DNA of 64,000 nt from Syntrophaceae bacterium (lineage in GTDB: Bacteria > Desulfobacterota > Syntrophia > Syntrophales > Smithellaceae), in assembly GCA_003139775.1 (NCBI GenBank), contig PLGI01000080.1, positions 34,063-98,062 of the forward strand, given 5' to 3'. The position numbers and the translations under genes were made by a program. The notes under the pieces are model-generated. The model was not told where the DNA came from and made no database searches. It was given only the letters and a program-made list of their open reading frames with translations. Shown piece by piece: positions 10,712 through 22,537 of the stretch. Within the stretch, counting starts at the first letter, position 1. Each line of letters opens with the position of its first letter.

Positions 10712-11518
10712 TTAAAGATTCACCAACTCAACACGGCCAAGTGTGCGTCCCAGAAAACGTTCGCCAATCGTTTGAAAGCGATAAGGCAAATCGCTTACAT
10801 AAAAAGTATAATCCGGTGGCGTGCAATTATGGTTGCCCATGTTTTGTTTATTGATCAACTCAGCGGCGATATCGGCCATTGCTTCCGCCGAGTCAATAAG
10901 CATTACTTCCTGTCCCAGAATATCCTGCAGTAATGGTTTTAAAAGCGGATAATGAGTACAGCCCAAAACCAGCGTGTCAATTTGTTCGGCAATAACCGGT
11001 TTTAAATATTCCTGAACGATAAGCTTTGTTGCCGGATGATCAAACCACCCTTCTTCTACCAGAGGCACGAAAAGAGGGCAGGCTTGCGAAAAAACCTTCG
11101 CTTCTTTATCTAAAAGGTGGATAGCCCTGGCGTAAGCGTTACTGTTGATTGTTGCCGGTGTTCCAATGACTCCGATTGATTTGGTTTTGGTATTTTGTAT
11201 GGACATGCGGGCGCTGGCGTCAATTACTTCTAGCACGGGCACCGGCGATAAATCAATTATCGATTGATGGGCGACTGCTGCCATCGTGTTGCACGCAACG
11301 ATCAATAACTTTACGTCTTTCTTAATAAGAAATTCTGTAATTTGCGCCGCGTAGCGATTGATTGTTTCCACCGATTTAATGCCGTAGGGCACACGCGCGG
11401 TATCGCCGAAATAAATGATGTTTTCAAAAGGTAGACGTTCCATCAAAGAACGGACGACCGTCAGGCCGCCAATACCGGAATCGAACACACCTATGGCATT
11501 ATTTGTTTTTGTATTCAC
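10712..11518 (-). CDS. murI: Glutamate racemase
   Basis: 268-aa ORF with IGVFDSGIGGLTV, VACNTM and GCTHYPLL motifs. Confidence 0.92.
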   Translation of the reverse strand: MNTKTNNAIGVFDSGIGGLTVVRSLMERLPFENIIYFGDTARVPYGIKSVETINRYAAQITEFLIKKDVKLLIVACNTMAAVAHQSIIDLSPVPVLEVIDASARMSIQNTKTKSIGVIGTPATINSNAYARAIHLLDKEAKVFSQACPLFVPLVEEGWFDHPATKLIVQEYLKPVIAEQIDTLVLGCTHYPLLKPLLQDILGQEVMLIDSAEAMADIAAELINKQNMGNHNCTPPDYTFYVSDLPYRFQTIGERFLGRTLGRVELVNL

Positions 11519-11666: not shown

Positions 11667-13103
11667 TTATCTAGAAGAAATATATTTTTTAAATTGCTGA
11701 ATCATATAATTGTATTTGTTTATTGCTGAATTTCTCCGGAGAACGGATTTATTGTAAGCGTTATTATAGTATCTGTTTTGTATATTTTCCCACATTTGTT
11801 GTTCACCGACTGTTAAATCTTTTTCACTATCAGATTTATGGGGGAAAGTGCGCTTGAATAATTCATCGCGGTACTGATCAAGAGCTAATTGCGCATCTCT
11901 TACAGGGTCGATTGAATTGGGATCAACGCCTACTTCATCCAATACCCACTTCTCATACTTGGCGCCATCTAGGCTGCCATCAGGTTTCGATATCAGGATG
12001 CCTGCATTCCAATCTACAAAATGGACTAATGACTGAGAATCCACATAGCAATATACATCACGTTTGGAAGGTGTTTTTAATGATCCTCTTTCCGCCTGGT
12101 TTGTTGCCAGAGATTTTCCATTTTGTAATGCTATTACCCGTTCGGCAGCCACGCAAAAATTTAAATTTTGTCCTTGAGTGTATTGGAATGTTGCCACACC
12201 GATAACTTCGCCACGCATATTCAGCAAGGGGCCGCCGCTGTTGCCGGGTGATATAGGTGCCGATACTTGAATATACTTTACTGCTTGCGGAGAGCTTCTT
12301 ACGCCAGATATGATGCCGTCGGAAACAGTCTGTTCGAGTCCCTCGAAACCCAATGGGTTGCCGATTACAATTACCTGCTCGCCGATATCAGGAATTGATG
12401 AAGTTAAAGCCACGGGAAAGATTTCATTGGCGGGTGTTTCCGTTGAAGCAATCACCAAATCTCCAACAACATCAGTGGCAACTATTCGATTAATTTTGTA
12501 AATATTACCCGATGAAGTTTTAATCTCAGCATTGCCGGAATCGCTGAGAACATGCTTATTAGTGGCGATGAATCCCTGATCGTTGATAAAAAAACCGCTA
12601 CCCTTCACCCCTCGCGCAGTTTTAACGACAACCACGCTGCGTGTATTTCTGCGTACAATATCGGAAAGAGATAGTTTTCCCTCTTCTCTTGAGGGCACAT
12701 TAATTACAGGATTTTCCGACAATTTCGTTTCCGGTACATTTCCAAGTCTGTAATTTTCGGGAGATTCCGGTAAAGAAGCGGAAGGGGTTATGGCCACATT
12801 CTTCGGTTCAGTTTTTTCTTTTTGAGAATATTTGATTATAAACGGAACTAAAAAAGAGTTGATTATCACTATCGCTGCAACAACAATAATAGCATATTTC
12901 AATATCGGGTTTATATTCGACGGCGAACAGTTTGAGGGTGCTGCACTGGGGGGTTCACTAGCTTTTTTTATTGGTGCATTATTTTCAGTAACGGCAGCGG
13001 CCTTCCATTTTGCGTAGACGATGCCACATTTGGGACATTCAGCGGCATTAATTACTTCATCAATTGGCATTCTTTCATAACCACATTTAGGGCATTTTGT
13101 CAT
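11667..13103 (-). CDS. Membrane-anchored trypsin-like serine protease with N-terminal zinc ribbon and an unknown C-terminal domain
   Basis: CPKCGYE...CPKCG ribbon, one TM segment, and an S1C-type core (ATNKHV..., GNSGGPLLN). The start is set at ATG 13103 (TAGGAG 6 nt upstream), not the longer ORF start at 13181. Confidence 0.75.
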   Translation of the reverse strand: MTKCPKCGYERMPIDEVINAAECPKCGIVYAKWKAAAVTENNAPIKKASEPPSAAPSNCSPSNINPILKYAIIVVAAIVIINSFLVPFIIKYSQKEKTEPKNVAITPSASLPESPENYRLGNVPETKLSENPVINVPSREEGKLSLSDIVRRNTRSVVVVKTARGVKGSGFFINDQGFIATNKHVLSDSGNAEIKTSSGNIYKINRIVATDVVGDLVIASTETPANEIFPVALTSSIPDIGEQVIVIGNPLGFEGLEQTVSDGIISGVRSSPQAVKYIQVSAPISPGNSGGPLLNMRGEVIGVATFQYTQGQNLNFCVAAERVIALQNGKSLATNQAERGSLKTPSKRDVYCYVDSQSLVHFVDWNAGILISKPDGSLDGAKYEKWVLDEVGVDPNSIDPVRDAQLALDQYRDELFKRTFPHKSDSEKDLTVGEQQMWENIQNRYYNNAYNKSVLRRNSAINKYNYMIQQFKKYISSR

Positions 13104-13599: not shown

Positions 13600-14865
13600 T
13601 TACACCTTAAATTTATTTAAGCCATCGAAGTCTAAGGTAGTCAGATAGTCTTTTACTGTTTCGGCGCGGCGGATTTGTACAACTTCACCATTTTCTCTTA
13701 GCAGCAGTTCTGCCGAACGAAGCTTGCCGTTGTAATTGAATCCCATGGCGAAGCCATGCGCGCCGGCATCATGGATAACAACAATATCGCCGCTTTCCAG
13801 CTTGGGCAAAGCGCGGTCAATGGCGAATTTATCATTATTTTCGCAAAGTGAGCCGGTTACGTCATAAACAAAATTATGCGGTTTGCGTTCCTTGCCCATA
13901 ACCGTGATGTGATGATAGGCGCCGTAAAGTGCGGGACGCATCAAGTTAGCCATGCAGGCATCCAGACCGGCAAATTTTTTATAAGTATTTTTAATATGCA
14001 GAATGCGGGAAATCAGATAACCATAAGGGCCGGTGATGTAACGGCCGCACTCCGTAAAAAGTTTAATAGGGGCCAAGCCGTTGGCAACAATAATTTGTTC
14101 ATATTTTTTCTTGATGCCACGGCTCATTGCTTTGAGGTCTATGCGTTTCTGCTCCGGTTGGTAAGGAATACCCACACCCCCGCCGATATTGACAAATTCA
14201 AATTTGATTTTCAGCTTTTGTGAAATTTCCACTATCAGCTTAAATAATATTTCCGCCGTTTCTGCAAAGTAATGGGCGTCGAGTTCATTGGACGCGACCA
14301 TGGTATGAATGCCGAATCGTTTGACGCCTTTTTCTTTACAAATTTTATAACCTTCAAAAAGCTGTTCCCGCGTGAAGCCGTATTTTGCCTCCTCGGGATG
14401 GCCGATAATAAAATTTCCTTTTTTTAAAGATCCGGGATTGTAGCGGAAGCAAATCAAGGAAGGCAATCCGGCGCATTTTTCCAGATAGTCAATATGGCTG
14501 ATATCATCCAGATTGATATTGGCTTTTAATTTTTTTGCCAGAAGAAATTCTTCCACGGGTGTGTCATTGGAGGAAAACATGATTTCTTTGCCGGTGATCC
14601 CCGTTTTTTGCGCCATGATCAGTTCCGCCAGCGAACTGCAATCCGCGCCGAAGTCTTCCTTGTGCAGAATTTTCATCAGGTAAGGATTAGGCGCGGCTTT
14701 GACGGCAAAAAATTCTTTAAACCCTTCGTTCCAGGCAAAGGCGTTTTTGAAATCGCGTGCGTTCTCCCTGATGGCTTTCTCATCATAAAGGTGAAAAGGC
14801 GTCGGATATTTTTTTATGATTTTTTCGATTTGGTTTTTTGTAAAAGGCAATAACTTTTTCGACAT
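13600..14865 (-). CDS. PLP-dependent decarboxylase, Orn/DAP/Arg decarboxylase family (diaminopimelate decarboxylase-like)
   Basis: Reads YPTPFHLYDE..., FAVKAAPNP and a C-terminal beta-barrel region. The start is set at ATG 14865 (AAGGAGAG upstream), not 14916. Confidence 0.7.
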   Translation of the reverse strand: MSKKLLPFTKNQIEKIIKKYPTPFHLYDEKAIRENARDFKNAFAWNEGFKEFFAVKAAPNPYLMKILHKEDFGADCSSLAELIMAQKTGITGKEIMFSSNDTPVEEFLLAKKLKANINLDDISHIDYLEKCAGLPSLICFRYNPGSLKKGNFIIGHPEEAKYGFTREQLFEGYKICKEKGVKRFGIHTMVASNELDAHYFAETAEILFKLIVEISQKLKIKFEFVNIGGGVGIPYQPEQKRIDLKAMSRGIKKKYEQIIVANGLAPIKLFTECGRYITGPYGYLISRILHIKNTYKKFAGLDACMANLMRPALYGAYHHITVMGKERKPHNFVYDVTGSLCENNDKFAIDRALPKLESGDIVVIHDAGAHGFAMGFNYNGKLRSAELLLRENGEVVQIRRAETVKDYLTTLDFDGLNKFKV

Positions 14866-14986
14866 GAGGCTCTCCTTGAAATGTGCGTATGGAAATAACA
14901 TATTCCTAATGAACAAATTTACGGTAAAAAATAAAATTTATCAATGTTATTTTATGTCAGGAGGACTAGCCGGTGAATGTAAAACG

Positions 14987-15988
14987 TTATAAGAAAAAGT
15001 ATTTGAAAAAAAGATAAGTGATTGCGGAGATAATGGCGGTAATAGGAATGGTTAAAATCCATGCCCAGACAATGTTTCCGGCAACACCCCAGCGCACCGC
15101 GGAAAGTCTTTTGGTAGCGCCGACGCCGACTATAGCACCGGTTATTGTATGAGTTGTGCTGACGGGAATTCCGGCCAAAGACGCACCGATAATCGAACAG
15201 GCGGCAGCCGTCTCGGCGCTAAAGCCGCCAATGGGACGCAGCTTGGTAATTTTAGTGCCCATAGTTTTAACGATACGCCAGCCGCCGAACATAGTTCCCA
15301 GAGAGATCACCGTATAGCAGGCAATGATAACCCAGATGGGAATATGAAAAGTGTTGCCGAGAAGTCCCTTACTGAAAAGAGCCATCGCAATGATCCCCAT
15401 CGTTTTTTGCGCGTCATTCATACCGTGTCCCAACGAATAGACCGCGGCGGAAACAAGCTGTAATTTTCTGTATAGTTTATCTGAACGAGCCATATTGGAA
15501 TGCCGGTTCAAATTTAAGGAGATGACCATAAAAACAAAACCTAAAGTCATTCCGATAGCAGGGGAAACGATGATAAAAATAGTTGTTTTCGCAATGCCGG
15601 ACCATATCAGGGTGCCAGTGCCAGCCTTGGCAATACCAGCTCCGATAAGCCCGCCAATCAAGGCATGGGAAGAACTACTGGGAAGGCCGTAATACCAAGT
15701 GGTTATATTCCAGATAATTGCTCCACCCAAAGCAGATAGTATCAACAGGTTGTCTACAACTTCCAAATGTATTATGCCCTTGCCGACGGTGTTCGCAACT
15801 GCTGTGCCTACAAAAAAGACGGCGGCAAAATTAAAAAAAGCCGCCCAGATGACAGCATATTTCGGCGAAAGAACACGAGTGGAAACAACGGTAGAAATGG
15901 AATTCGCTGAATCATGAAAACCATTAAGGAAGTCAAAAACCAGCGCGACAATAACAAGAAATATGACAAAGCCCATCGACTCAAGCAT
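14987..15988 (-). CDS. Inorganic phosphate transporter, PiT family
   Basis: 333-aa polytopic ORF with GFHDSANSIST and GMNDAQKTMGII motifs. Confidence 0.9.
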   Translation of the reverse strand: MLESMGFVIFLVIVALVFDFLNGFHDSANSISTVVSTRVLSPKYAVIWAAFFNFAAVFFVGTAVANTVGKGIIHLEVVDNLLILSALGGAIIWNITTWYYGLPSSSSHALIGGLIGAGIAKAGTGTLIWSGIAKTTIFIIVSPAIGMTLGFVFMVISLNLNRHSNMARSDKLYRKLQLVSAAVYSLGHGMNDAQKTMGIIAMALFSKGLLGNTFHIPIWVIIACYTVISLGTMFGGWRIVKTMGTKITKLRPIGGFSAETAAACSIIGASLAGIPVSTTHTITGAIVGVGATKRLSAVRWGVAGNIVWAWILTIPITAIISAITYLFFKYFFL

Positions 15989-16601
15989 GCTTCAAGACGA
16001 TCCCTTCCACAATGTTGGATACATCTTCACAAACATCAATTGCCTCTTCAAGGAGTTGAAAAATATCTTTCCATTTTATAAGTTCGATCGCGTCTTTCTC
16101 GTTTTCGAAAAGATTGGCCATGATAGTTCTTAGAACAATATCACCGGCATTTTCCAGCGTGTTAATTTCCACACAACCGGCTAGAATCATTTCGGAGTTT
16201 TTCATGTTGCGCATTGCCTGAACAATGCTTTTGACTTTTTTTATCGCGTCATTCAATATTTGCGCCTGCTTGATTATTTCATCCGCCGGCTTTTTGACTT
16301 TATAAAGATGAACACGGACGGCAGTGGCTTCAATGACATCCATAATGCTATCCATTTTATTAACAAGGGCGTAGATATCTTCACGGTCAATAGGAGTGAG
16401 GAAAGTCTTGTGCATTTTTTCATATGTTTTATGGGTAATACCGTCCGCTTCGTGTTCAATTTCCTTGAGCTTGGCGACTTTCTCCTCAGAAAAATCACGA
16501 GTTTGAGCCATTTCCAGAAAAAGTTTACCGCCCTCTTCAATTTTGTCGGCCAGCTCTTCAAAAAGTTCAAAAAAATTATCTGTTTTAGGAAAAAGGCGCA
16601 T
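15981..16601 (-). CDS. DUF47 / PhoU-like phosphate transport regulator (PiT accessory)
   Basis: 206-aa helical ORF. It overlaps the PiT start by 8 nt, which is the typical pairing. Confidence 0.8.
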   Translation of the reverse strand: MRLFPKTDNFFELFEELADKIEEGGKLFLEMAQTRDFSEEKVAKLKEIEHEADGITHKTYEKMHKTFLTPIDREDIYALVNKMDSIMDVIEATAVRVHLYKVKKPADEIIKQAQILNDAIKKVKSIVQAMRNMKNSEMILAGCVEINTLENAGDIVLRTIMANLFENEKDAIELIKWKDIFQLLEEAIDVCEDVSNIVEGIVLKHA

Positions 16602-16728
16602 GAGAAATACCTCTCTTTATTTTTTCCAGGGGTTTATAAATTCACGCAGTCCTCTAGCGAATTTTGAAAAATAATGCAAGCTGTTTTAAAGGCACAAGAC
16701 CCCTGCTTTGTGGGCTTATTGTATGTTG

Positions 16729-17217
16729 TTAAAGAGTTTTGACGTATATAATTTTACTGTCACCTTCCATATAATAATCCTTTAAGACAGCTTCTTTTTG
16801 ATAACCGCAACTCTCATAAAAACCATGGGTTGGTTGATATTGATCACGGGAAGATGTCTCCACGTAAATTCGTTTGCCGCCTAGATCGTAAATAATTTTT
16901 TCTGTTCTCTTCATTAAGTCTTTACCCAGGCCTATACCTCTGGATTGTTCATCGACAGCAATCCAGTAGAGGTCATAGCTGCCGGAAGTTGCCGGGATAA
17001 GGCCAAAGCAGGTATATCCATGAACAATCTGCTTATCTTCGGCAAATAAAAACTGGTATGAACTGGCATTGCCTTGATCAAGCTTTTCCTCGGCTAATTC
17101 TCTGGCTAAAGCAATTTCTTCGGTAGAAAAAAATCCGCTTGATCTCACAATTCTGGAGATTGCATGCGGGTCTGCTGCCATGATCTCCTGACGGTAAATT
17201 AATGTGTTTGCGGTCAT
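16729..17217 (-). CDS. GNAT family N-acetyltransferase
   Basis: 162-aa ORF with the acetyl-CoA binding motif VDEQSRGIGLGKDLM. It is the last gene of the kamA operon. Confidence 0.8.
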   Translation of the reverse strand: MTANTLIYRQEIMAADPHAISRIVRSSGFFSTEEIALARELAEEKLDQGNASSYQFLFAEDKQIVHGYTCFGLIPATSGSYDLYWIAVDEQSRGIGLGKDLMKRTEKIIYDLGGKRIYVETSSRDQYQPTHGFYESCGYQKEAVLKDYYMEGDSKIIYVKTL

Positions 17218-17572
17218 AGTAGTACCTCAAACTTGCGGTAGCACATTGCGAAACATAAAACATACTGCGCCAATAGACACAATCCCGCCCAAAGATAGTC
17301 CAGTGTTAAGGCTTGCTTCATATAAATAAGGGCAAAGCCGGCAAAAACAATCATAGTGATAACTTCCTGAATAATTTTAGCTGGCCCAAGCTATAATATT
17401 GAAAACCGATTCTATTGGCCGGCACTTGTAAAGCGTATTCAAAAAAAGCGATGCCCCAACTGAATAATATCACAAATACCAGAGGTTTGCTGTTGAAGTT
17501 TTTCAAATGACCGTACCAGGCAAAAGTCATAAACACATTAGAAAAGAAAAGTAAGATAATTAATTTGAACAT
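17214..17572 (-). pseudogene. DUF486 (DMT-like small membrane protein), interrupted by a -1 frameshift in an A4 run
   Basis: The 73-aa ORF ends prematurely. Reading from 17379 in the -1 frame gives IIQEVITMIVFAGFALIYMKQALTLDYLWAGLCLL..., which ends in an ATGA overlap with the GNAT start. Confidence 0.7.
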
Positions 17573-17655
17573 TTAGTTGATATTCTCCAAATGTTTTATT
17601 TATATCATCATTGCTTAAAAAAGAACGTTTTGAAGTAATCAATGTTTGTTGCAAT

Positions 17656-18648
17656 TTAAAAACGCCTCAACGCATCATCTATGATTAGTGCAATACCCTC
17701 GTGATATTTGAAAGATGCTTTTTCCATAGCAAAAGCGAAGCCGGCCTCCAGTGACAAACAAGGATTAGCATTAATTTCCAGTACCCAGGGGGTGCCATTT
17801 TTATCCACCCGGAAATCAACGCGTGCGTAACCGCGCAGATCGAACAGTTTCCAGCATTTTTTGGCGATTTCCTGCAATTCGGCGATTAATCCGAAATCAT
17901 CTTCGGAAAAATCCATTGTCCGCGAGGTGTTTTCGTATTCAAAAGAGCCCTCTACCCATTTGGCGCGGTAATCCAATAACTTCAATTTATCTGCTCCATA
18001 ATCTATGAATTGCATTTCCGCTGCCGGAAGAGCTACGCATCCGGATTTGCCGGCGATAAGCGCTATGTTAAATTCACGTCCGTCAATATATGCTTCGGCA
18101 AAACAGCTTCTGCCAATTTTCTTATGGCGATCTTTCATTGTGCTTAGAATATCAGTTGCAGCATCAAGAGTAATTATGGACTCTTTGTCCAAGCCGACGG
18201 ACGCATGTTCCCAAACGGCTTTAAGTAGGAATGTGGCAGAAGGAGCCTGCCCGTTGCAAATCCCTTTTGGAGAAATCCATGCAGGAGTGGCAATCCCCGC
18301 GGCTTGCATTAATTCCTTGGCCAGTGGCTTATTGGATGTAAGATAGATAGCATCCGTACCTGAGCCTGTATAGGGAATGTTCAAATGATCCAAAAGAGCC
18401 GGAGCAAAATAAATTAAACTGCCTTTGGTATTGATAGTTTCCACAATATTAAAAACAAAATGCGGACGCAAGGATGTCAGTGTGTCAATTGTCTTATTTA
18501 AATCCAAAACAAAGGGGAGCAAAATTGGTTCGTAATCTAATTGGCGGAGCGCCCCGGAAATAGTTTTCGCCTGCATTAGACAATCAAGTTCGTCTTCACT
18601 GGCATCGGGAGCAATATCGCTGTGTAAAATTACAACTTTTTTCATCAT
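17656..18648 (-). CDS. D-alanine--D-alanine ligase-like ATP-grasp enzyme (paralog 2)
   Basis: 330-aa ORF with Ddl-like N-domain and ATP-grasp core (GYARVDFRVDKNGTPWVLEINANP). Confidence 0.8.
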   Translation of the reverse strand: MMKKVVILHSDIAPDASEDELDCLMQAKTISGALRQLDYEPILLPFVLDLNKTIDTLTSLRPHFVFNIVETINTKGSLIYFAPALLDHLNIPYTGSGTDAIYLTSNKPLAKELMQAAGIATPAWISPKGICNGQAPSATFLLKAVWEHASVGLDKESIITLDAATDILSTMKDRHKKIGRSCFAEAYIDGREFNIALIAGKSGCVALPAAEMQFIDYGADKLKLLDYRAKWVEGSFEYENTSRTMDFSEDDFGLIAELQEIAKKCWKLFDLRGYARVDFRVDKNGTPWVLEINANPCLSLEAGFAFAMEKASFKYHEGIALIIDDALRRF

Positions 18649-18673
18649 TAATTTTTGGCGGATTTTAACCGTC

Positions 18674-19714
18674 TTAGTGTAGAATTTTAAGGTTTATATC
18701 AGCGCGCCGCAGGGCCGATTCAATAATGGAGCTGATTAATACAGGATAGCTCATGCCCAGCAGATTACAGAGAATGGGCAAATCCGAACGCTTAGGGTTT
18801 AGTCCGGCAAGCGAATTAACTTCCATGAAATGCGGTGCTCCATGGACATCAGAGCGTAAATCCACACGTCCGGCATCTTTTAAATCCAAATAACGCCAGG
18901 CTTTGAGGGCTATTTCCCTAGCTTGCTTGGCTTCGTTATCATCAACCAAAGCGTATTGGACGAGATTTTCATAATGTTCCTTATTTTCATAGGAATAAGC
19001 ATTTTTATCCGCAGTTGGCTTTAAAATAACTTCCATTACTCCCAGCACTTTAGCATCTTTTGCGGTGCCTAATATGCCGACGGTAAATTCACGGCCGGGA
19101 AGATATGTTTCGACCAGCGCAGGCTGCTTAAAAGTCTGTAAAATGTATTTGCAGGTCCGACGCAATTCTTCACGATTGATTATTTTTGACAGCGCCGTTA
19201 TGCCCTTGCTCGTTCCTTCCGCTACCGGTTTGGCAAAAAGAGGAAAAGGAAGATTAACGTTGTCAATTTCCGCATCACTGTTAACTACAGCAAAATCTGG
19301 TGTGGGTATTCCTAAATCGCGGAGAACATGTTTGGTCATTCCCTTATGGAGAGAAAGGGTATGACCAAGTGGATCGGAAAAAGTATAAGGGATGTTAAAT
19401 GCGTCCAACAGAGCGGGAATTTGTGCTTCGCGTCCGAAACCATTAAGGCCTTCAGCAATGTTAAAAACGAGATCCCAGCGGTTTTCTGCGGCAAGCCGGC
19501 GAGTCAACGCTTTTACGTTGCCAATTCGATCAGCTTGAAAACCATTATCTAAAATCACCTTTTCAATAGCTTCGATTGTATCGAGAAGATCGAATTCAGC
19601 CGTTTCTTCTAGACCATATCCTTCTTTCAAATAATCATCGCGTAAATCATAAGTTATGCCAATTTTCAATTTTTTACTGACGCGATTCAATGTTAAATTA
19701 TCTACCCCCTGCAA
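18674..19714 (-). CDS. D-alanine--D-alanine ligase-like ATP-grasp enzyme (paralog 1)
   Basis: 346-aa ORF with an ATP-grasp core (DAGRVDLRSDVHGAPHFMEVNSLAGL). The start codon is uncertain: TTG 19714, or an internal TTG before KIGITYD. Confidence 0.8.
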   Translation of the reverse strand: MQGVDNLTLNRVSKKLKIGITYDLRDDYLKEGYGLEETAEFDLLDTIEAIEKVILDNGFQADRIGNVKALTRRLAAENRWDLVFNIAEGLNGFGREAQIPALLDAFNIPYTFSDPLGHTLSLHKGMTKHVLRDLGIPTPDFAVVNSDAEIDNVNLPFPLFAKPVAEGTSKGITALSKIINREELRRTCKYILQTFKQPALVETYLPGREFTVGILGTAKDAKVLGVMEVILKPTADKNAYSYENKEHYENLVQYALVDDNEAKQAREIALKAWRYLDLKDAGRVDLRSDVHGAPHFMEVNSLAGLNPKRSDLPILCNLLGMSYPVLISSIIESALRRADINLKILH

Positions 19715-19729
19715 TAAATTTCTGCCAAT

Positions 19730-21037
19730 TTAATGTATATCCTTCGATTTTGCGTGGTTGTCGGGGTAGCGGAAAGTATTACCTTCGTAATTACGCAGCA
19801 GCAAAGCGCCATTTTCCCATCCGATGGCATATTCGGGGAGCAAAGGAATTTTGCCGCCGCCGCCGGGAGCATCGACAACATAAGTAGGCACAGCATAACC
19901 GGTAGTATACCCGCGCATGCCTTGAATAATTTCAATACCCTTGCTTATCGGTGTCCGGAAATGAGAGGAGCCCGGAATGGGATCACACTGATACAGATAA
20001 TAAGGACGAACTCTGATTTGCAGTAGGCCATGTACCAATCTCATCATGGTGACAACGTCATCATTGATATCGGAAAGCAGCACGGTCTGACTTCCCAATG
20101 GAATGCCGGCGTCGGCCAGGCGGATACAGGCGGCGCTCATTTCCGGCGTTAATTCGTCGGGATGGGTGATATGAATGCTCAACCATAAAGGATGATATTT
20201 TTTCAGCATAGAGGTAAGAGCCGGAGTTATTCTCTGAGGCAAAACAACAGGCACTTTGGTTCCGATACGCAGAAGTTCAATATGAGGAATTTTGTGCAGA
20301 CGCATTAACAGCCAATCCAGCTTTTCATCGGACAAGGTTAAAGGATCGCCGCCGGAGAGAAGTACGTCCCGGATGTTTTTATTGCCGGCAATATATTCTA
20401 TAGCCTTTTCCCATTTTTCGAAGTCGACAAGATGTTGATTACTGCGTTCGATAATTCGGGAACGTGTGCAATAGCGGCAATATGTCGAACAGTGGTCGGT
20501 CACTAAAAATAGCACGCGATCGGGATAGCGATGAATAATGCCCGGCACCGGAGAATCGGCATCCTCGCACAGCGGATCTTCTTCTTCGCCTGCGGTATGC
20601 AAGCATTCATCTACAACGGGAACAACGCAGCGGCGCAGCGGATCTGAAGGATCATCAGAATCGAGCAGGCTGGCATAATAAGGCGTAATGGAAACAGGCA
20701 ACGCTCCCGAGTGATGCATCATTGCCTGACGTTCATTATCCGAAAGATTAAGTATTTGAGACAAGGTGTCGACGTCCCTGATGGCGTTACGCAACTGCCA
20801 ATGCCAGTCAAACCATTCCATACGGGTAATTTCGGGATAATTTCGGGTTCGGAAAATACGTGATCGAGGGGAATCTTTAAAAGGAAATAAAACTCTATCT
20901 GACTTTTTTTTAATCGGGTAAAGAGAAACATCTTCTTTGAATAACAAAAAGTCACTTACATCATTTTTAGCATTAACAAGACCGGTCAATGGACCAGGAG
21001 GTTCCTCCTCCTCATTAAATAGGGTCTCGTTTTCCAT
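19730..21037 (-). CDS. kamA: Lysine 2,3-aminomutase (KamA family radical SAM/PLP enzyme)
   Basis: 435-aa ORF with CSTYCRYCTRS (CxxxCxxC), YYLYQCD...HFRT and TYVVDAPGGGGK motifs. AAGGAGG lies 6 nt upstream of the ATG. Confidence 0.85.
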   Translation of the reverse strand: MENETLFNEEEEPPGPLTGLVNAKNDVSDFLLFKEDVSLYPIKKKSDRVLFPFKDSPRSRIFRTRNYPEITRMEWFDWHWQLRNAIRDVDTLSQILNLSDNERQAMMHHSGALPVSITPYYASLLDSDDPSDPLRRCVVPVVDECLHTAGEEEDPLCEDADSPVPGIIHRYPDRVLFLVTDHCSTYCRYCTRSRIIERSNQHLVDFEKWEKAIEYIAGNKNIRDVLLSGGDPLTLSDEKLDWLLMRLHKIPHIELLRIGTKVPVVLPQRITPALTSMLKKYHPLWLSIHITHPDELTPEMSAACIRLADAGIPLGSQTVLLSDINDDVVTMMRLVHGLLQIRVRPYYLYQCDPIPGSSHFRTPISKGIEIIQGMRGYTTGYAVPTYVVDAPGGGGKIPLLPEYAIGWENGALLLRNYEGNTFRYPDNHAKSKDIH

Positions 21038-21109
21038 TTTGTTCCTCCTTCTGGGGGTTTCCCTCCCGTGAAATTATTTTGTAATAAAAAATTACAAACT
21101 TTTATAATT

Positions 21110-21138
21110 TTAATGTACTCATCTGGAATATTTGTCAA
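21110..21138 (-). promoter_or_regulatory. Candidate sigma-70 promoter for the kamA operon
   Basis: On the minus strand: TTGACA (21138-21133), a 17-nt spacer, then CATTAA (21115-21110). This is about 70 nt upstream of the kamA ATG. Confidence 0.3.
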
Positions 21139-21763
21139 CACTTTTTTTTATTTTTGTTATAAAAAAATAAAATATTTTTTAAAGGGATCTTCCTTAAAAA
21201 TAATATTCTCTAACTTTTTCAGCTTTATTTGACGGCCTAATGTGCAAATTCTATTATTTGATCGGGCCCAATATGAAACCTTTGATGTTGCGTAAACACT
21301 GATGGAATCTATATCAGAGCGTTATGGAAGCGACCGACTGGGGTGAGGGATGGTTCCATGGAAAAAGAAAATCCTTTTGGAAAAATGGATGGAAAGGTCT
21401 GGCGATGTGAAATTATGTCTAACGGTGGATCGTCTAGCAAACTGATTGTGTTTGGTTAAAGATCGGGGTAGGTTTGTCAAGCGGAAAAAAGAAGTAGGCA
21501 AAAAAAATTATTTTTAGTAACAGTAGAAACGGAAGGATTGTTGAAAACCCCATGTTTGGAGGCTGTTCAAAAATGTTCAGATGCAAGGCACGCGAAGAAC
21601 CGAACCGCGAGGCGTATAACCTAAAGGTCACACGCATGGATATACGTTGAGCGATGCGGTTTGCAGCGCAACCCCGGCCTTCGCCGGGGTAAACTCCGCA
21701 GATGAGCGTTTTTCAATAGCCCCACAGAAGATAAATGTGTCCTTATAGCTATGGAGAGAAGAA

Positions 21764-22537
21764 ATGCCCGAATTGCCCGAAGTAGAAACTCTAAGCCGCC
21801 AAATGCAAGAAAAGATTTGCGGCCTGAAGATATTAGCCACCGAAGTTTACGACGATAAACTGGCCGGCATCAAAAATCTTAAGGGAAGAATAGTCACTGC
21901 GGTTGAGCGCAGGGGCAAAACAGTAGCCATTCTTCTTGATGACGGGAATTTCGTGTTAATCCATCTGCGCATGACGGGAAGGCTTTTTTGGCAGGAGGAT
22001 TCGACAAGGCCGAAACATAGCCGCTGGAGAATGGCTTTTGCCGATGGCAATGTCTTTCTTATTGATCCACGCCGTTTTGCCACGATCGGGATATTAAAGA
22101 AAGTGGAGGGCGACTCCGGCAAAGATATTTTCAAAGAATTTGATCTTAAAGCTTTCCTGAAAAACCATGGAAGCCGCAGGACAAAAGTTAAATCGCTGAT
22201 TATGGATCAAAGAGCCGTGGCGGGCATAGGCAACATTTACGCGTGTGAGATTTTACACCGAACCGGTATTCATCCCAAACGAGTAGCGGTAACTTTAATG
22301 AAAAATGACTGGAAAAAAATATTTCGTCAGGCCAAAATCGTGTTAAAGACAGCGATTAAAAAAAGAGGCACGTCTATTTCCGATTGGCGCGATCTGTATG
22401 GCCGTAAAGGCGAAAACCAGCACGAGTTAAAAGCCTATGGGCGGGAAGGAAAGCGTTGTTCAATTTGCGGCGGCACAATTTGCCGGATAAAGCAAAACGG
22501 ACGCAGTACATTTTTTTGTCCCGCTTGCCAGAAGTAA
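21764..22537 (+). CDS. mutM: Formamidopyrimidine-DNA glycosylase
   Basis: 257-aa ORF starting MPELPEVET, with the C-terminal zinc finger CSICGG...CPACQ. Confidence 0.92.
   Translation: MPELPEVETLSRQMQEKICGLKILATEVYDDKLAGIKNLKGRIVTAVERRGKTVAILLDDGNFVLIHLRMTGRLFWQEDSTRPKHSRWRMAFADGNVFLIDPRRFATIGILKKVEGDSGKDIFKEFDLKAFLKNHGSRRTKVKSLIMDQRAVAGIGNIYACEILHRTGIHPKRVAVTLMKNDWKKIFRQAKIVLKTAIKKRGTSISDWRDLYGRKGENQHELKAYGREGKRCSICGGTICRIKQNGRSTFFCPACQK

Follow-up and report, generated by a model that had tools for sequence, protein, structure and literature searches.

What compound does a lysine 2,3-aminomutase serve when its gene is followed by two Ddl-like ATP-grasp ligases and a small acetyltransferase? 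The question is raised by a minus-strand block at 16729-21037 of the 64,000-nt stretch of Syntrophaceae bacterium DNA analyzed here (the window), in which five co-oriented reading units are set apart by spacers of 15, 25, and 83 nt. The original prediction read them as a five-gene operon for a beta-lysine-derived peptide or solute. The units and spacers stand as described, and because the same order recurs in other loci, the arrangement is more than chance. Only four of the genes are intact, the DUF486 unit being a pseudogene. The operon therefore comprises genes for a KamA-type lysine 2,3-aminomutase, two ATP-grasp ligases (AG1 and AG2), and a 162-aa GNAT. The features discussed below are as follows.

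21079..21432, no strand: upstream spacer, 5′ limit of the transcribed block (RNA versus DNA depth)
19730..21037, minus strand: KamA-family lysine 2,3-aminomutase, 435 aa (TIGR00238, 2A5H alignment, motifs)
18674..19714, minus strand: AG1, Ddl-like ATP-grasp ligase, 346 aa from the first TTG (Dala_Dala_lig_C, E 5e-30)
17656..18648, minus strand: AG2, second, more divergent Ddl-like ATP-grasp ligase, 330 aa (Dala_Dala_lig_C, E 2e-14)
17227..17572, minus strand: DMT_6/DUF486 pseudogene between AG2 and GNAT (two 1-nt deletions)
16729..17217, minus strand: small GNAT N-acetyltransferase, 162 aa (Acetyltransf_7/_1, E 2e-10)
15981-16601, minus strand: DUF47/PhoU_div (Pfam/NCBIfam)
14987-15988, minus strand: PiT phosphate transporter (Pfam/NCBIfam)
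13600-14916, minus strand: lysA (TIGR01048, 302.3 versus a cut-off of 297.9)

A four-gene operon within a transcribed block

Aligned with seven intact relatives, which are 113-116 aa long, the DUF486 gene shows two deletions, one within the A-run 17375-17378 and one at 17274/17275, that break it into ORFs of 73 aa and 46 aa. This region was reproduced with 0 gaps in independent assemblies, one of DNA and three of RNA, and the intact ortholog in L025 matches PF04342 at E 1e-45. Since the intact frame would end at the TGA at 17227-17229, 9 nt upstream of the GNAT start, the ATGA overlap reported earlier arises only from the shifted reading frame. The suggestion that this protein exports the product is not supported, given that the gene is inactivated here and occurs in only 22/70 loci, all of them in relatives within the same family.

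Contigs from three peat metatranscriptomes, each from a different study, were identical to the window (0 differences). They span kamA/AG1 in three runs, AG1/AG2 in one run, and DUF486/GNAT in three runs; none of the RNA contigs spans the AG2/DUF486 junction by 31 nt on each side. These gene-bridging contigs are consistent with a transcribed block and do not by themselves prove a single transcript. Upstream, they terminate at 21015-21055, and the spacer beyond has zero depth in all three RNA runs while being covered by the DNA run X7.

One RNA contig continues from the GNAT into DUF47. The downstream neighbors (13600..16601) are conserved in same-family relatives, and we treat them as context of the operon, which does not imply membership in the pathway. 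A lysA gene does lie two genes downstream, as had been proposed, and scores above the TIGR01048 cut-off. Its proposed role in supplying lysine fared less clearly: lysA follows the operon in 34/61 loci, and immediately follows the GNAT in six of those, but as the sole close lysA in the genome it is a housekeeping gene, and a dedicated lysine supply is only suggestive.

Conserved residues support a lysine-type aminomutase

The aminomutase scored 363 against the TIGR00238 cut-off of 199. All of the motifs previously pointed out are present, namely the radical-SAM CxxxCxxC (C183/C187/C190), QCD with D352, and VVDAPGGGGK with D389 and K396. In an alignment to the solved clostridial enzyme 2A5H (E 5e-134), D352, D389, and K396 correspond to D293, D330, and K337, and these positions and the Cys triad are invariant in 76/76 orthologs. 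The retention of both lysine-binding aspartates supports the predicted assignment as a lysine-type enzyme. The N terminus is extended by ~65 aa, and the LAM_C match is confined to profile positions 1-60 of 127 (Pfam), leaving out the C-terminal half of this domain. The closest model is AblA, with 497.7 bits against an equivalog cut-off of 525.4. Given this sub-cut-off score and the partial LAM_C domain, the substrate may be a different basic amino acid.

Clostridial lysine fermentation begins with KamA, and the locus could on that ground be read as one for lysine breakdown via beta-lysine. We consider this extremely unlikely, as the beta-lysine 5,6-aminomutase, dehydrogenase, and cleavage enzyme are absent from the operon, none of them recurs in 24 distant loci, and ATP-consuming ligases indicate synthesis.

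AG1 and AG2 are probably active ligases other than the housekeeping Ddl

The view of AG1 and AG2 as Ddl-type ATP-grasp proteins was borne out by the match of both to Pfam Dala_Dala_lig_C. With the solved Ddls (PDB 5D8D, 8EVX, 1IOV, and others) they share the fold family PF07478 and much of the catalytic machinery. All 81 AG1 sequences compared share 63 residues, among them the counterparts of Ddl K215, R255, D257, E270, N272, G276, and S281, and the ATP-grasp catalytic residues do not vary in any of the 81. AG2 retains the catalytic K, R, D, E, and N in at least 69/71 sequences. The two proteins differ from solved Ddls in their distance (E-values of 1e-24 for AG1 and 1e-12 for AG2), in a distinct N-terminal substrate region, where AG1 has invariant Y22-D23 and E40-x-D42, and in the Cys that replaces Ddl G276 in AG2 of 70/71 sequences. 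AG1 falls below every Ddl cut-off (156.5 versus 243, NCBIfam), as does AG2 below every NCBIfam one, and a separate canonical Ddl in the genome passes them (449.6 versus 262). From these residues and scores, both ligases are probably active, and neither is the housekeeping Ddl.

The start of AG1 may be the TTG at 19714, 19690, or 19669, the last of which gives 331 aa. Because the alignment to distant orthologs and fusion proteins begins only at residue ~16, the kamA-AG1 spacer is possibly 60 nt rather than 15.

The ligases are linked to the aminomutase across several phyla

The comparison across genomes suggested with the original prediction found kamA-AG1-AG2 retained in ~70/76 related loci from several phyla. 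The kamA gene lies directly upstream of AG1 in 75/76 loci with room for it (74 by the script rule plus L053, where two hits overlap), and AG2 directly downstream of AG1 in 69/72. A search of the four genomes with apparently broken linkage located the missing gene elsewhere in three (AG2 for L053 and L055, kamA for L075); in the fourth, L071, kamA and AG2 proved to be linked at the locus after all. Among the partners of KamA, AG1 is conserved best. It was found in 143/201 genomes of the order, 110/146 of the high-quality ones, and 20/20 of its own family, a single-copy distribution that looks vertical across the order. Fusions tell of the same association: among the 120 long AG1 homologs listed, KamA domains occur in 25 and GNAT in two. 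BLAST confirmed a KamA-AG1 fusion (P0023), AG1-AG2 fusions (P0001, P0021), and AG1-AG2-GNAT fusions (P0047, P0067), and an AG2-GNAT fusion is present in L064.

The GNAT is distinct from AblB

The GNAT matches PDB 2R7H at E 6e-38, with about half of the residues identical over 156 positions, and 2R7H is probably its ortholog. The deposited title, "putative D-alanine N-acetyltransferase", we take to be the depositors' guess; we know of no function assigned to this protein. A GNAT lies within 4 kb of the operon in 50/70 loci, and none is that near in 20/70. For five genomes without one at the locus, it was found elsewhere in three; in the other two, searched with the window's query, it was not found, and kamA, AG1, and AG2 are present. 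Since the GNAT is not universal, acetylation is possibly optional.

The AblA/AblB system makes N-epsilon-acetyl-beta-lysine in methanogens and some bacteria, as cited in PMC3543383 and PMC11201294. The window likewise combines an AblA/KamA-type radical-SAM aminomutase with a GNAT in one operon, and an acetylated beta-lysine-derived molecule would be expected; KamA and the GNAT alone might then make acetylated beta-lysine. AblA is the closest model for KamA, and in Syntrophus a LAM gene not associated with EF-P clusters with "ablB" (PMC2821294). The differences nevertheless make this reading quite improbable. As had been anticipated, the GNAT is not AblB: its 162 aa gave no match to the 266-position AblB model, and the model search found no AblB in the whole genome, which is rated 100% complete. 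The window KamA is below the AblA cut-off and C-terminally truncated. Two ligases are interposed, show tighter linkage to KamA than the GNAT does, and occur fused to both KamA and the GNAT; some genomes, moreover, have kamA, AG1, and AG2 with no GNAT found.

A candidate pathway to an acetylated beta-lysine compound

The reading that we favor, with some confidence, is a cytoplasmic, ribosome-independent pathway to a small N-acetylated beta-lysine amide, di- or tripeptide-like. Judging from its residues, KamA would convert L-lysine to beta-lysine. AG1, the ligase consistently found alongside KamA and, in other taxa, part of the same polypeptide, would then use ATP to couple beta-lysine or N-epsilon-acetyl-beta-lysine to a partner bearing a carboxylate adjacent to its amine. 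AG2 would form a second amide bond, and the GNAT would acetylate a free amine. The acetyl cap might protect against cyclization of activated beta-lysine or neutralize charge in the product. Turnover of acetyl groups would fit the fusion of a GNAT-like domain with an HDAC-family deacetylase that lies within the operon in 5/24 distant loci. In the literature searched, in line with the original prediction, no pathway for this gene set or its product is described; in this Smithella-like peat bacterium, a widely conserved, transcribed gene set probably builds a small acetylated beta-lysine compound absent from that literature.

Two systems resemble this scheme by description. Ngg, of the Ngg/AsnO pair, is a fused GNAT and ATP-grasp ligase for N-acetylglutaminylglutamine amide, an N-acetylated dipeptide solute. 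The AG2-GNAT and AG1-AG2-GNAT fusions recall it; here, unlike there, an aminomutase would provide a beta-lysine building block, there are two ligases, and there is no amidotransferase. Blasticidin S biosynthesis, encoded by a much larger nucleoside-antibiotic cluster of actinomycetes, uses the arginine 2,3-aminomutase BlsG and a ligase for the beta-amino acid, so that a radical-SAM 2,3-aminomutase product is likewise joined as an amide by an ATP-dependent ligase. The window KamA, however, reaches 392.6 on the arginine aminomutase model, whose cut-off is 600.

Alternatively, beta-lysine or a peptide containing it could be attached to a cell-wall precursor or to a protein, in the manner of RimK with S6 and EpmA with EF-P. 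Protein-modifying ligases occur in the ATP-grasp superfamily, RimK or TTL Pfam labels are carried by 16-50% of members in the atlas neighbors of AG2, the next PDB matches to the GNAT after 2R7H are N-alpha-acetyltransferases of proteins, and AG2 weakly matches a putative pseudomurein ATP-grasp model (E 1.5e-6). In EpmB/EpmA, too, a KamA-family aminomutase supplies beta-lysine for ATP-dependent ligation. That system differs in that the window kamA is not adjacent to efp and is partnered by ATP-grasp ligases rather than by a lysyl-tRNA-synthetase paralog. EF-P has its own operon in this genome, a kamA paralog-efp-genX set on contig C163, and the same split between EF-P and non-EF-P LAM genes is described for Syntrophus in PMC2821294. 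Neighbors of the operon in 24 distant loci include no recurring candidate target gene, Mur ligase, or flippase, and the KamA-AG1 fusion suits channeling of a free small molecule. A macromolecular target is therefore unlikely.

A sporadically distributed antibiotic would agree less well with the near-universal, single-copy occurrence across the order than would a compound of primary metabolism, for instance a solute or stress protectant. Peat, the habitat of this bacterium, is presumably low in salt, which counts against a classical salt osmolyte.

AG2 has been replaced from another genus

A new finding is that in this genome AG2 alone is a xenologous allele from another genus. Its identity is 57-62% to 14/14 same-genus genomes versus 71-76% to other genera, and the exchange breakpoints lie near 18650 and 17600, inside the flanking spacers.

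A swap between genera is what a specificity module might undergo in a secondary-metabolite cassette, in which a bioactive beta-lysine peptide would be kept harmless to its producer by acetylation, activated by a deacetylase, and exported through a DMT-type transporter. GNAT and deacetylase genes do co-occur in those 5/24 distant loci; DUF486/DMT adjoins the GNAT in the 22 loci that have it, and in L091 the unlinked GNAT follows an EamA-type permease. Against this, AG1 is single-copy and vertical-looking in most of the order and all of the family, no gene for immunity, regulation, or transport is common to all of the compared loci, and the operon is still transcribed here with its exporter candidate pseudogenized. 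We accordingly hold such a cassette to be improbable. In the favored pathway to a small acetylated amide, AG2, being exchangeable between lineages, may set the variable moiety.

Organization of the operon

The operon lies entirely on the minus strand and comprises the following features, AG1 and AG2 denoting the first and second Ddl-like ATP-grasp ligases.

19730–21037, minus strand: KamA-family radical-SAM protein (lysine 2,3-aminomutase), 435 aa
18674–19714, minus strand: AG1, ATP-grasp protein, 346 aa
17656–18648, minus strand: AG2, ATP-grasp protein, 330 aa
17351–17572, minus strand: short ORF of 73 aa, DUF486 remnant
17214–17354, minus strand: short ORF of 46 aa, DUF486 remnant
16729–17217, minus strand: GNAT (small acetyltransferase), 162 aa

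Pfam and NCBIfam matches agreed with the protein identities given in the original prediction, and the spacers of 15, 25, and 83 nt were reproduced. The start of AG1 is ambiguous (TTG at 19714, 19690, or 19669). Because distant orthologs and fusion proteins align to it only from residue ~16, the kamA–AG1 spacer may be 60 nt.

DUF486 had been counted as one gene of a five-gene operon, but the single intact ORF of ~104 to 116 aa expected of DMT_6/DUF486 is not found in the window: two frameshifts split it into ORFs of 73 and 46 aa. Alignment with seven intact relatives (113–116 aa) located two 1-nt deletions, one in the A-run 17375–17378 and the other at 17274/17275; the intact ortholog at L025, a related locus in another genome, matches PF04342 (DMT_6/DUF486) with an E-value of 1e-45. 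The ancestral stop would be the TGA at 17227–17229, 9 nt ahead of the GNAT start, and the reported ATGA overlap is a product of the shifted frame. The interval 16497–17669 is reproduced without gaps or other letters by one contig of a DNA run (X7) and by contigs of three Illumina metatranscriptomes, which rules out misassembly as the source of the deletions. The remaining eight genes across 13.6 to 22.5 kb are intact.

Conservation, linkage, and gene fusions

Relatives of AG1 were found in 80 loci at 58 to 91% identity, distributed over Smithella and Smithellaceae, other Syntrophales, Moduliflexus, Vecturithrix, Verrucomicrobiota, Bdellovibrionota, Myxococcales, Desulfatiglandales, and Desulfobacterales. 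Within the order, AG1 is single-copy in 143 of 201 sampled genomes and occurs in 110 of 146 high-quality genomes, in 50 of 64 genera, and in all 20 genomes of its own family; it is absent from whole families of the order.

When conservation of the proposed five-gene set was examined, the core held, with kamA directly upstream of AG1 in 75 of the 76 loci with room for it and AG2 directly downstream in 69 of 72. GNAT lies within 4 kb in 50 of 70 such loci. DUF486 did not hold: only 22 of 70 related loci have it, and several of the closest relatives (L001–L003 and L007) are without it; it is dispensable, and in this genome it is decaying. Four genomes whose linkage looked broken were searched: the missing gene is located elsewhere in three (AG2 for L053 and L055, kamA for L075), and in the fourth (L071) kamA and AG2 proved to be linked at the locus after all. 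Similarly, GNAT is located elsewhere in three of five genomes whose loci are without it.

Of 120 listed long homologs of AG1, 25 include KamA domains and two include GNAT. Fusion architectures, confirmed by BLAST against the proteins of the window, are KamA–AG1 (P0023), AG1–AG2 (P0001 and P0021), and AG1–AG2–GNAT (P0047 and P0067), and locus L064 encodes AG2–GNAT as a single protein. Each adjacent gene pair therefore also exists as one polypeptide, and the fusions hint that AG1 and AG2 may bind each other. Another fusion protein confirmed by BLAST, P0029, carries a CxxCxxCC (PF03692-like) domain in residues 1 to 150, ahead of AG1–AG2; a putative metal-binding domain of the same kind is encoded between kamA and AG1 at L071:6453–7004. 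This domain may serve the pathway as a redox or metal partner.

Active-site residues of the aminomutase

KamA aligns with the clostridial lysine 2,3-aminomutase 2A5H (E-value 5e-134). Its radical-SAM CxxxCxxC motif is formed by C183, C187, and C190, and D352, D389, and K396 align with D293, D330, and K337 of 2A5H; equivalents of the cysteine triad and of these three residues are invariant in 76 of 76 KamA orthologs. The motif and both acidic positions named in the original prediction are thus present. K337 of 2A5H is the PLP-binding lysine, and D293 and D330 hold the epsilon-ammonium group of lysine; in glutamate 2,3-aminomutases these two aspartates are replaced.

On the AblA equivalog model TIGR03820, KamA scores 497.7, below the cut-off of 525.4, and matches model positions 3 to 362 of 417 only, the last ~55 being absent; LAM_C is likewise matched at positions 1 to 60 of 127 only. 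The subfamily model TIGR00238 is passed (363 versus 199). Among the models, KamA is nearest to AblA; it is a short form with a lineage-specific N-terminal extension.

Two diverged ATP-grasp ligases

Both ligases match PF07478, the Ddl-type ATP-grasp C-terminal domain (E-values of 5e-30 for AG1 and 2e-14 for AG2), and solved Ddl structures (best E-values of 2e-24 and 3e-12, respectively). Both fall well short of the curated Ddl cut-offs, with best scores of 156.5 (AG1) and 99.9 (AG2) versus 243. They are distant relatives of Ddl. The ESM Atlas yielded nothing more specific than generic "D-alanine--D-alanine ligase family" clusters.

The catalytic and second-substrate residues of Ddl (K215, R255, D257, E270, N272, G276, and S281 in E. 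coli DdlB numbering) were mapped onto AG1 and AG2 through 5D8D. The 63 residues invariant across 81 AG1 sequences include the equivalents of all seven (81/81), along with the family-specific Y22, D23, E40, D42, W80, E88, R95, E96, Y240, Y242, N244, and D311. The acidic residues D23, E40, D42, E88, E96, and D311 are candidates for contacts with the two amines of beta-lysine. The 71 AG2 sequences share 24 invariant residues and retain the catalytic K, R, D, E, and N, but a cysteine occupies the G276 position in 70 of the 71 and no serine aligns at S281. Since the catalytic residues are retained, both ligases look active; the Ddl-type site for a carboxylate-bearing nucleophile would be kept in AG1 and not in AG2.

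The genome encodes a third, orphan Ddl-like ATP-grasp protein of 349 aa on another contig (C181:10589–11638, outside the window), near a macro-domain gene and a gene for aspartate-semialdehyde dehydrogenase. Its identity to AG2 is 29%, and it scores below all Ddl cut-offs.

Comparison with known systems

The role of cell-wall Ddl was rejected for AG1 and AG2, as that function is covered by the canonical Ddl gene of this genome on contig C54, whose product passes its model (449.6 versus a cut-off of 262).

Beta-lysylation of EF-P by EpmA/EpmB would also employ a KamA-like enzyme, but the kamA of the window has no efp or GenX/EpmA neighbor. Outside the window, C163:16776–19507 carries an operon of a kamA paralog, efp, and genX (EpmA-like), and because this paralog serves the EF-P context, we exclude an EF-P role for the kamA of the window. 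The C163 paralog scores 244.9 against the EpmB equivalog cut-off of 369.3, and higher (400.2) on the AblA model. The same division into EF-P and non-EF-P copies of kamA is described for Syntrophus aciditrophicus in PMC2821294.

The AblAB route, in which GNAT would be AblB, is excluded: GNAT does not match TIGR03827, and a search of the genome, rated 100% complete, with this model returned no match. The locus differs from the AblA/AblB pathway in lacking an AblB-type acetyltransferase. The closest solved relative of GNAT is the uncharacterized GNAT 2R7H (E-value 6e-38).

No description of this gene set was found in the searched literature, which had subscription-only papers outside its coverage, and the possibility raised initially that the cluster corresponds to an already characterized pathway found no match there. 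The relevant passages of PMC3543383, PMC11201294, PMC12316311, and PMC11641026 deal only with AblAB or with LAM in general, or are reference lists.

Replacement of the AG2 allele

The window's kamA and AG1 are 99% and 92% identical to those of L001, and its GNAT is 99% identical to that of L025, but its AG2 is only 59 to 62% identical to the AG2 of L001/L025-type relatives, which are 82 to 91% identical to one another. Nucleotide identity to L001 and L025 drops from ~90% to ~60% near 18650, in the AG1/AG2 spacer, and identity to L025 is back at 93 to 98% near 17600, in the AG2/DUF486 spacer. AG2 identity is 57 to 62% in all 14 same-genus genomes. The best genome matches (71–76%) come from other genera of the family, and metagenome proteins reach 91%; the nearest AG2 among the loci is that of L017 (74%), from a lineage in which KamA shares 83% identity with that of the window. 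Divergence of AG2 with breakpoints in both flanking spacers indicates that a single gene of the operon was exchanged as a unit, the incoming allele being from another genus. The exchanged allele is the one present in RNA contigs. The swap constitutes a natural experiment, with two alleles in one genetic background, that can be used to find the specificity determinants of the ligase.

Transcription in peat and upstream region

Six peat metatranscriptomes contain 58 to 74% of the sampled words of the locus, and contigs of three of these, from three studies, show zero differences from the window. RNA contigs bridge the kamA/AG1 and DUF486/GNAT junctions in three runs, the AG1/AG2 junction in X17 only, and the GNAT/DUF47 junction in X15; no contig of the three RNA runs bridges AG2/DUF486 with 31 letters on both sides. 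This evidence consists of assembled contigs and is compatible with more than one transcript; between-gene differences in RNA contig depth were left out of account. The interval 21079–21432, covered by the DNA run, is represented in none of the three RNA runs, and this silent control places the 5′ end near 21055 to 21078. An apparent 67-nt joint at 20122–20190 in two RNA runs was read as a chimera with another organism, as its shorter side is only 20 letters long and unrelated sequence follows it in the contigs.

Of 24 distant loci, 10 encode sigma-54 activators upstream. Sigma-54 control was rejected for this genome, which has no convincing −24/−12 promoter upstream of kamA: the whole window holds 44 matches versus 60 expected by chance, with none in 21038–21763, and a search of 78 loci found no such promoter, the best score being 7 of 11 consensus positions. 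An Rfam scan (by E-value) of 16500–21900 detected no riboswitch or known RNA, and counts of sigma-70 promoters and terminators did not exceed those obtained with shuffled sequence.

The fpg–kamA spacer contains a repeat of ~140 nt (21561–21700), and at least 15 further contigs of the genome carry copies that are 85 to 92% identical. In the DNA run X7, depth jumps ~ninefold at the repeat and many short contigs end at 21559–21562. The repeat is probably a small mobile or REP-like element of intergenic sequence.

Proposed pathway

Beta-lysine has one carboxylate and two amines, and these three reactive groups could all be occupied by two ligations and one acetylation. In the scheme that we consider most likely, KamA would convert lysine to beta-lysine, and AG1, its constant and frequently fused partner, would form the first amide bond using beta-lysine. 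AG2 would form the second, and GNAT would acetylate a remaining amine. If the epsilon-amine were acetylated first, cyclization of the activated carboxylate would be prevented; arginine biosynthesis uses N-acetylation to the same end.

It is conceivable, if doubtful, that the cassette is a compact, nonribosomal peptide synthetase-independent, often-fused assembly line whose products are acetylated beta-lysine peptides of a new class, common in anaerobes of many phyla. KamA and AG1 would then be its unvarying beta-lysyl core, with AG2 as an interchangeable module that sets specificity and lets strains within a single genus produce differing variants of the compound; the acetyl group would act as a switch that can be removed.

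For the product of the proposed pathway, a compound of primary metabolism fits better than an antibiotic, given the wide, vertical, single-copy distribution and the in situ transcription. Peat habitats are low in salt, which argues against a classical salt osmolyte.

If this scheme is true, a widespread gene set of syntrophic and other anaerobes makes a compound without description in the searched literature, and since the set is transcribed in peat, this compound probably belongs to the active physiology of organisms that supply methanogens. The scheme is easy to test by expression, as the four genes are small and self-contained and some taxa encode them as single fusion proteins.

Accessory and neighboring genes

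Five of 24 distant loci (L066, L070, L073, L076, and L079) encode a fusion protein of 576 to 592 aa, placed between AG2 and GNAT or straight after GNAT, in which a weakly GNAT-like domain at the N terminus is joined to a deacetylase domain of the HDAC family (PF00850, E-value 2e-78). The five copies, from Desulfatiglandales-like and other loci (e.g., L073:9009–10787), are 62 to 83% identical to one another; this genome has no ortholog of the operon-linked protein, only paralogs at ~28% identity. Such deacetylases in other taxa would fit a removable acetyl group.

In 34 of 61 loci the operon is followed by lysA, which in six stands immediately after GNAT; this genome has no second close lysA. 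On the same strand, ~5 kb downstream of the operon, the window carries a gene resembling that for glutamate racemase (MurI; 10712–11518), which shows no linkage to the operon in other loci. At L091, an EamA-type permease gene lies ahead of an unlinked GNAT. Two Syntrophales loci (L044:12296–14110 and L045, ~12168–13085) encode a radical-SAM protein that is long (604 aa) and distantly KamA-like (~30% identity); its gene lies on the opposite strand, ~4 kb downstream of the operon.
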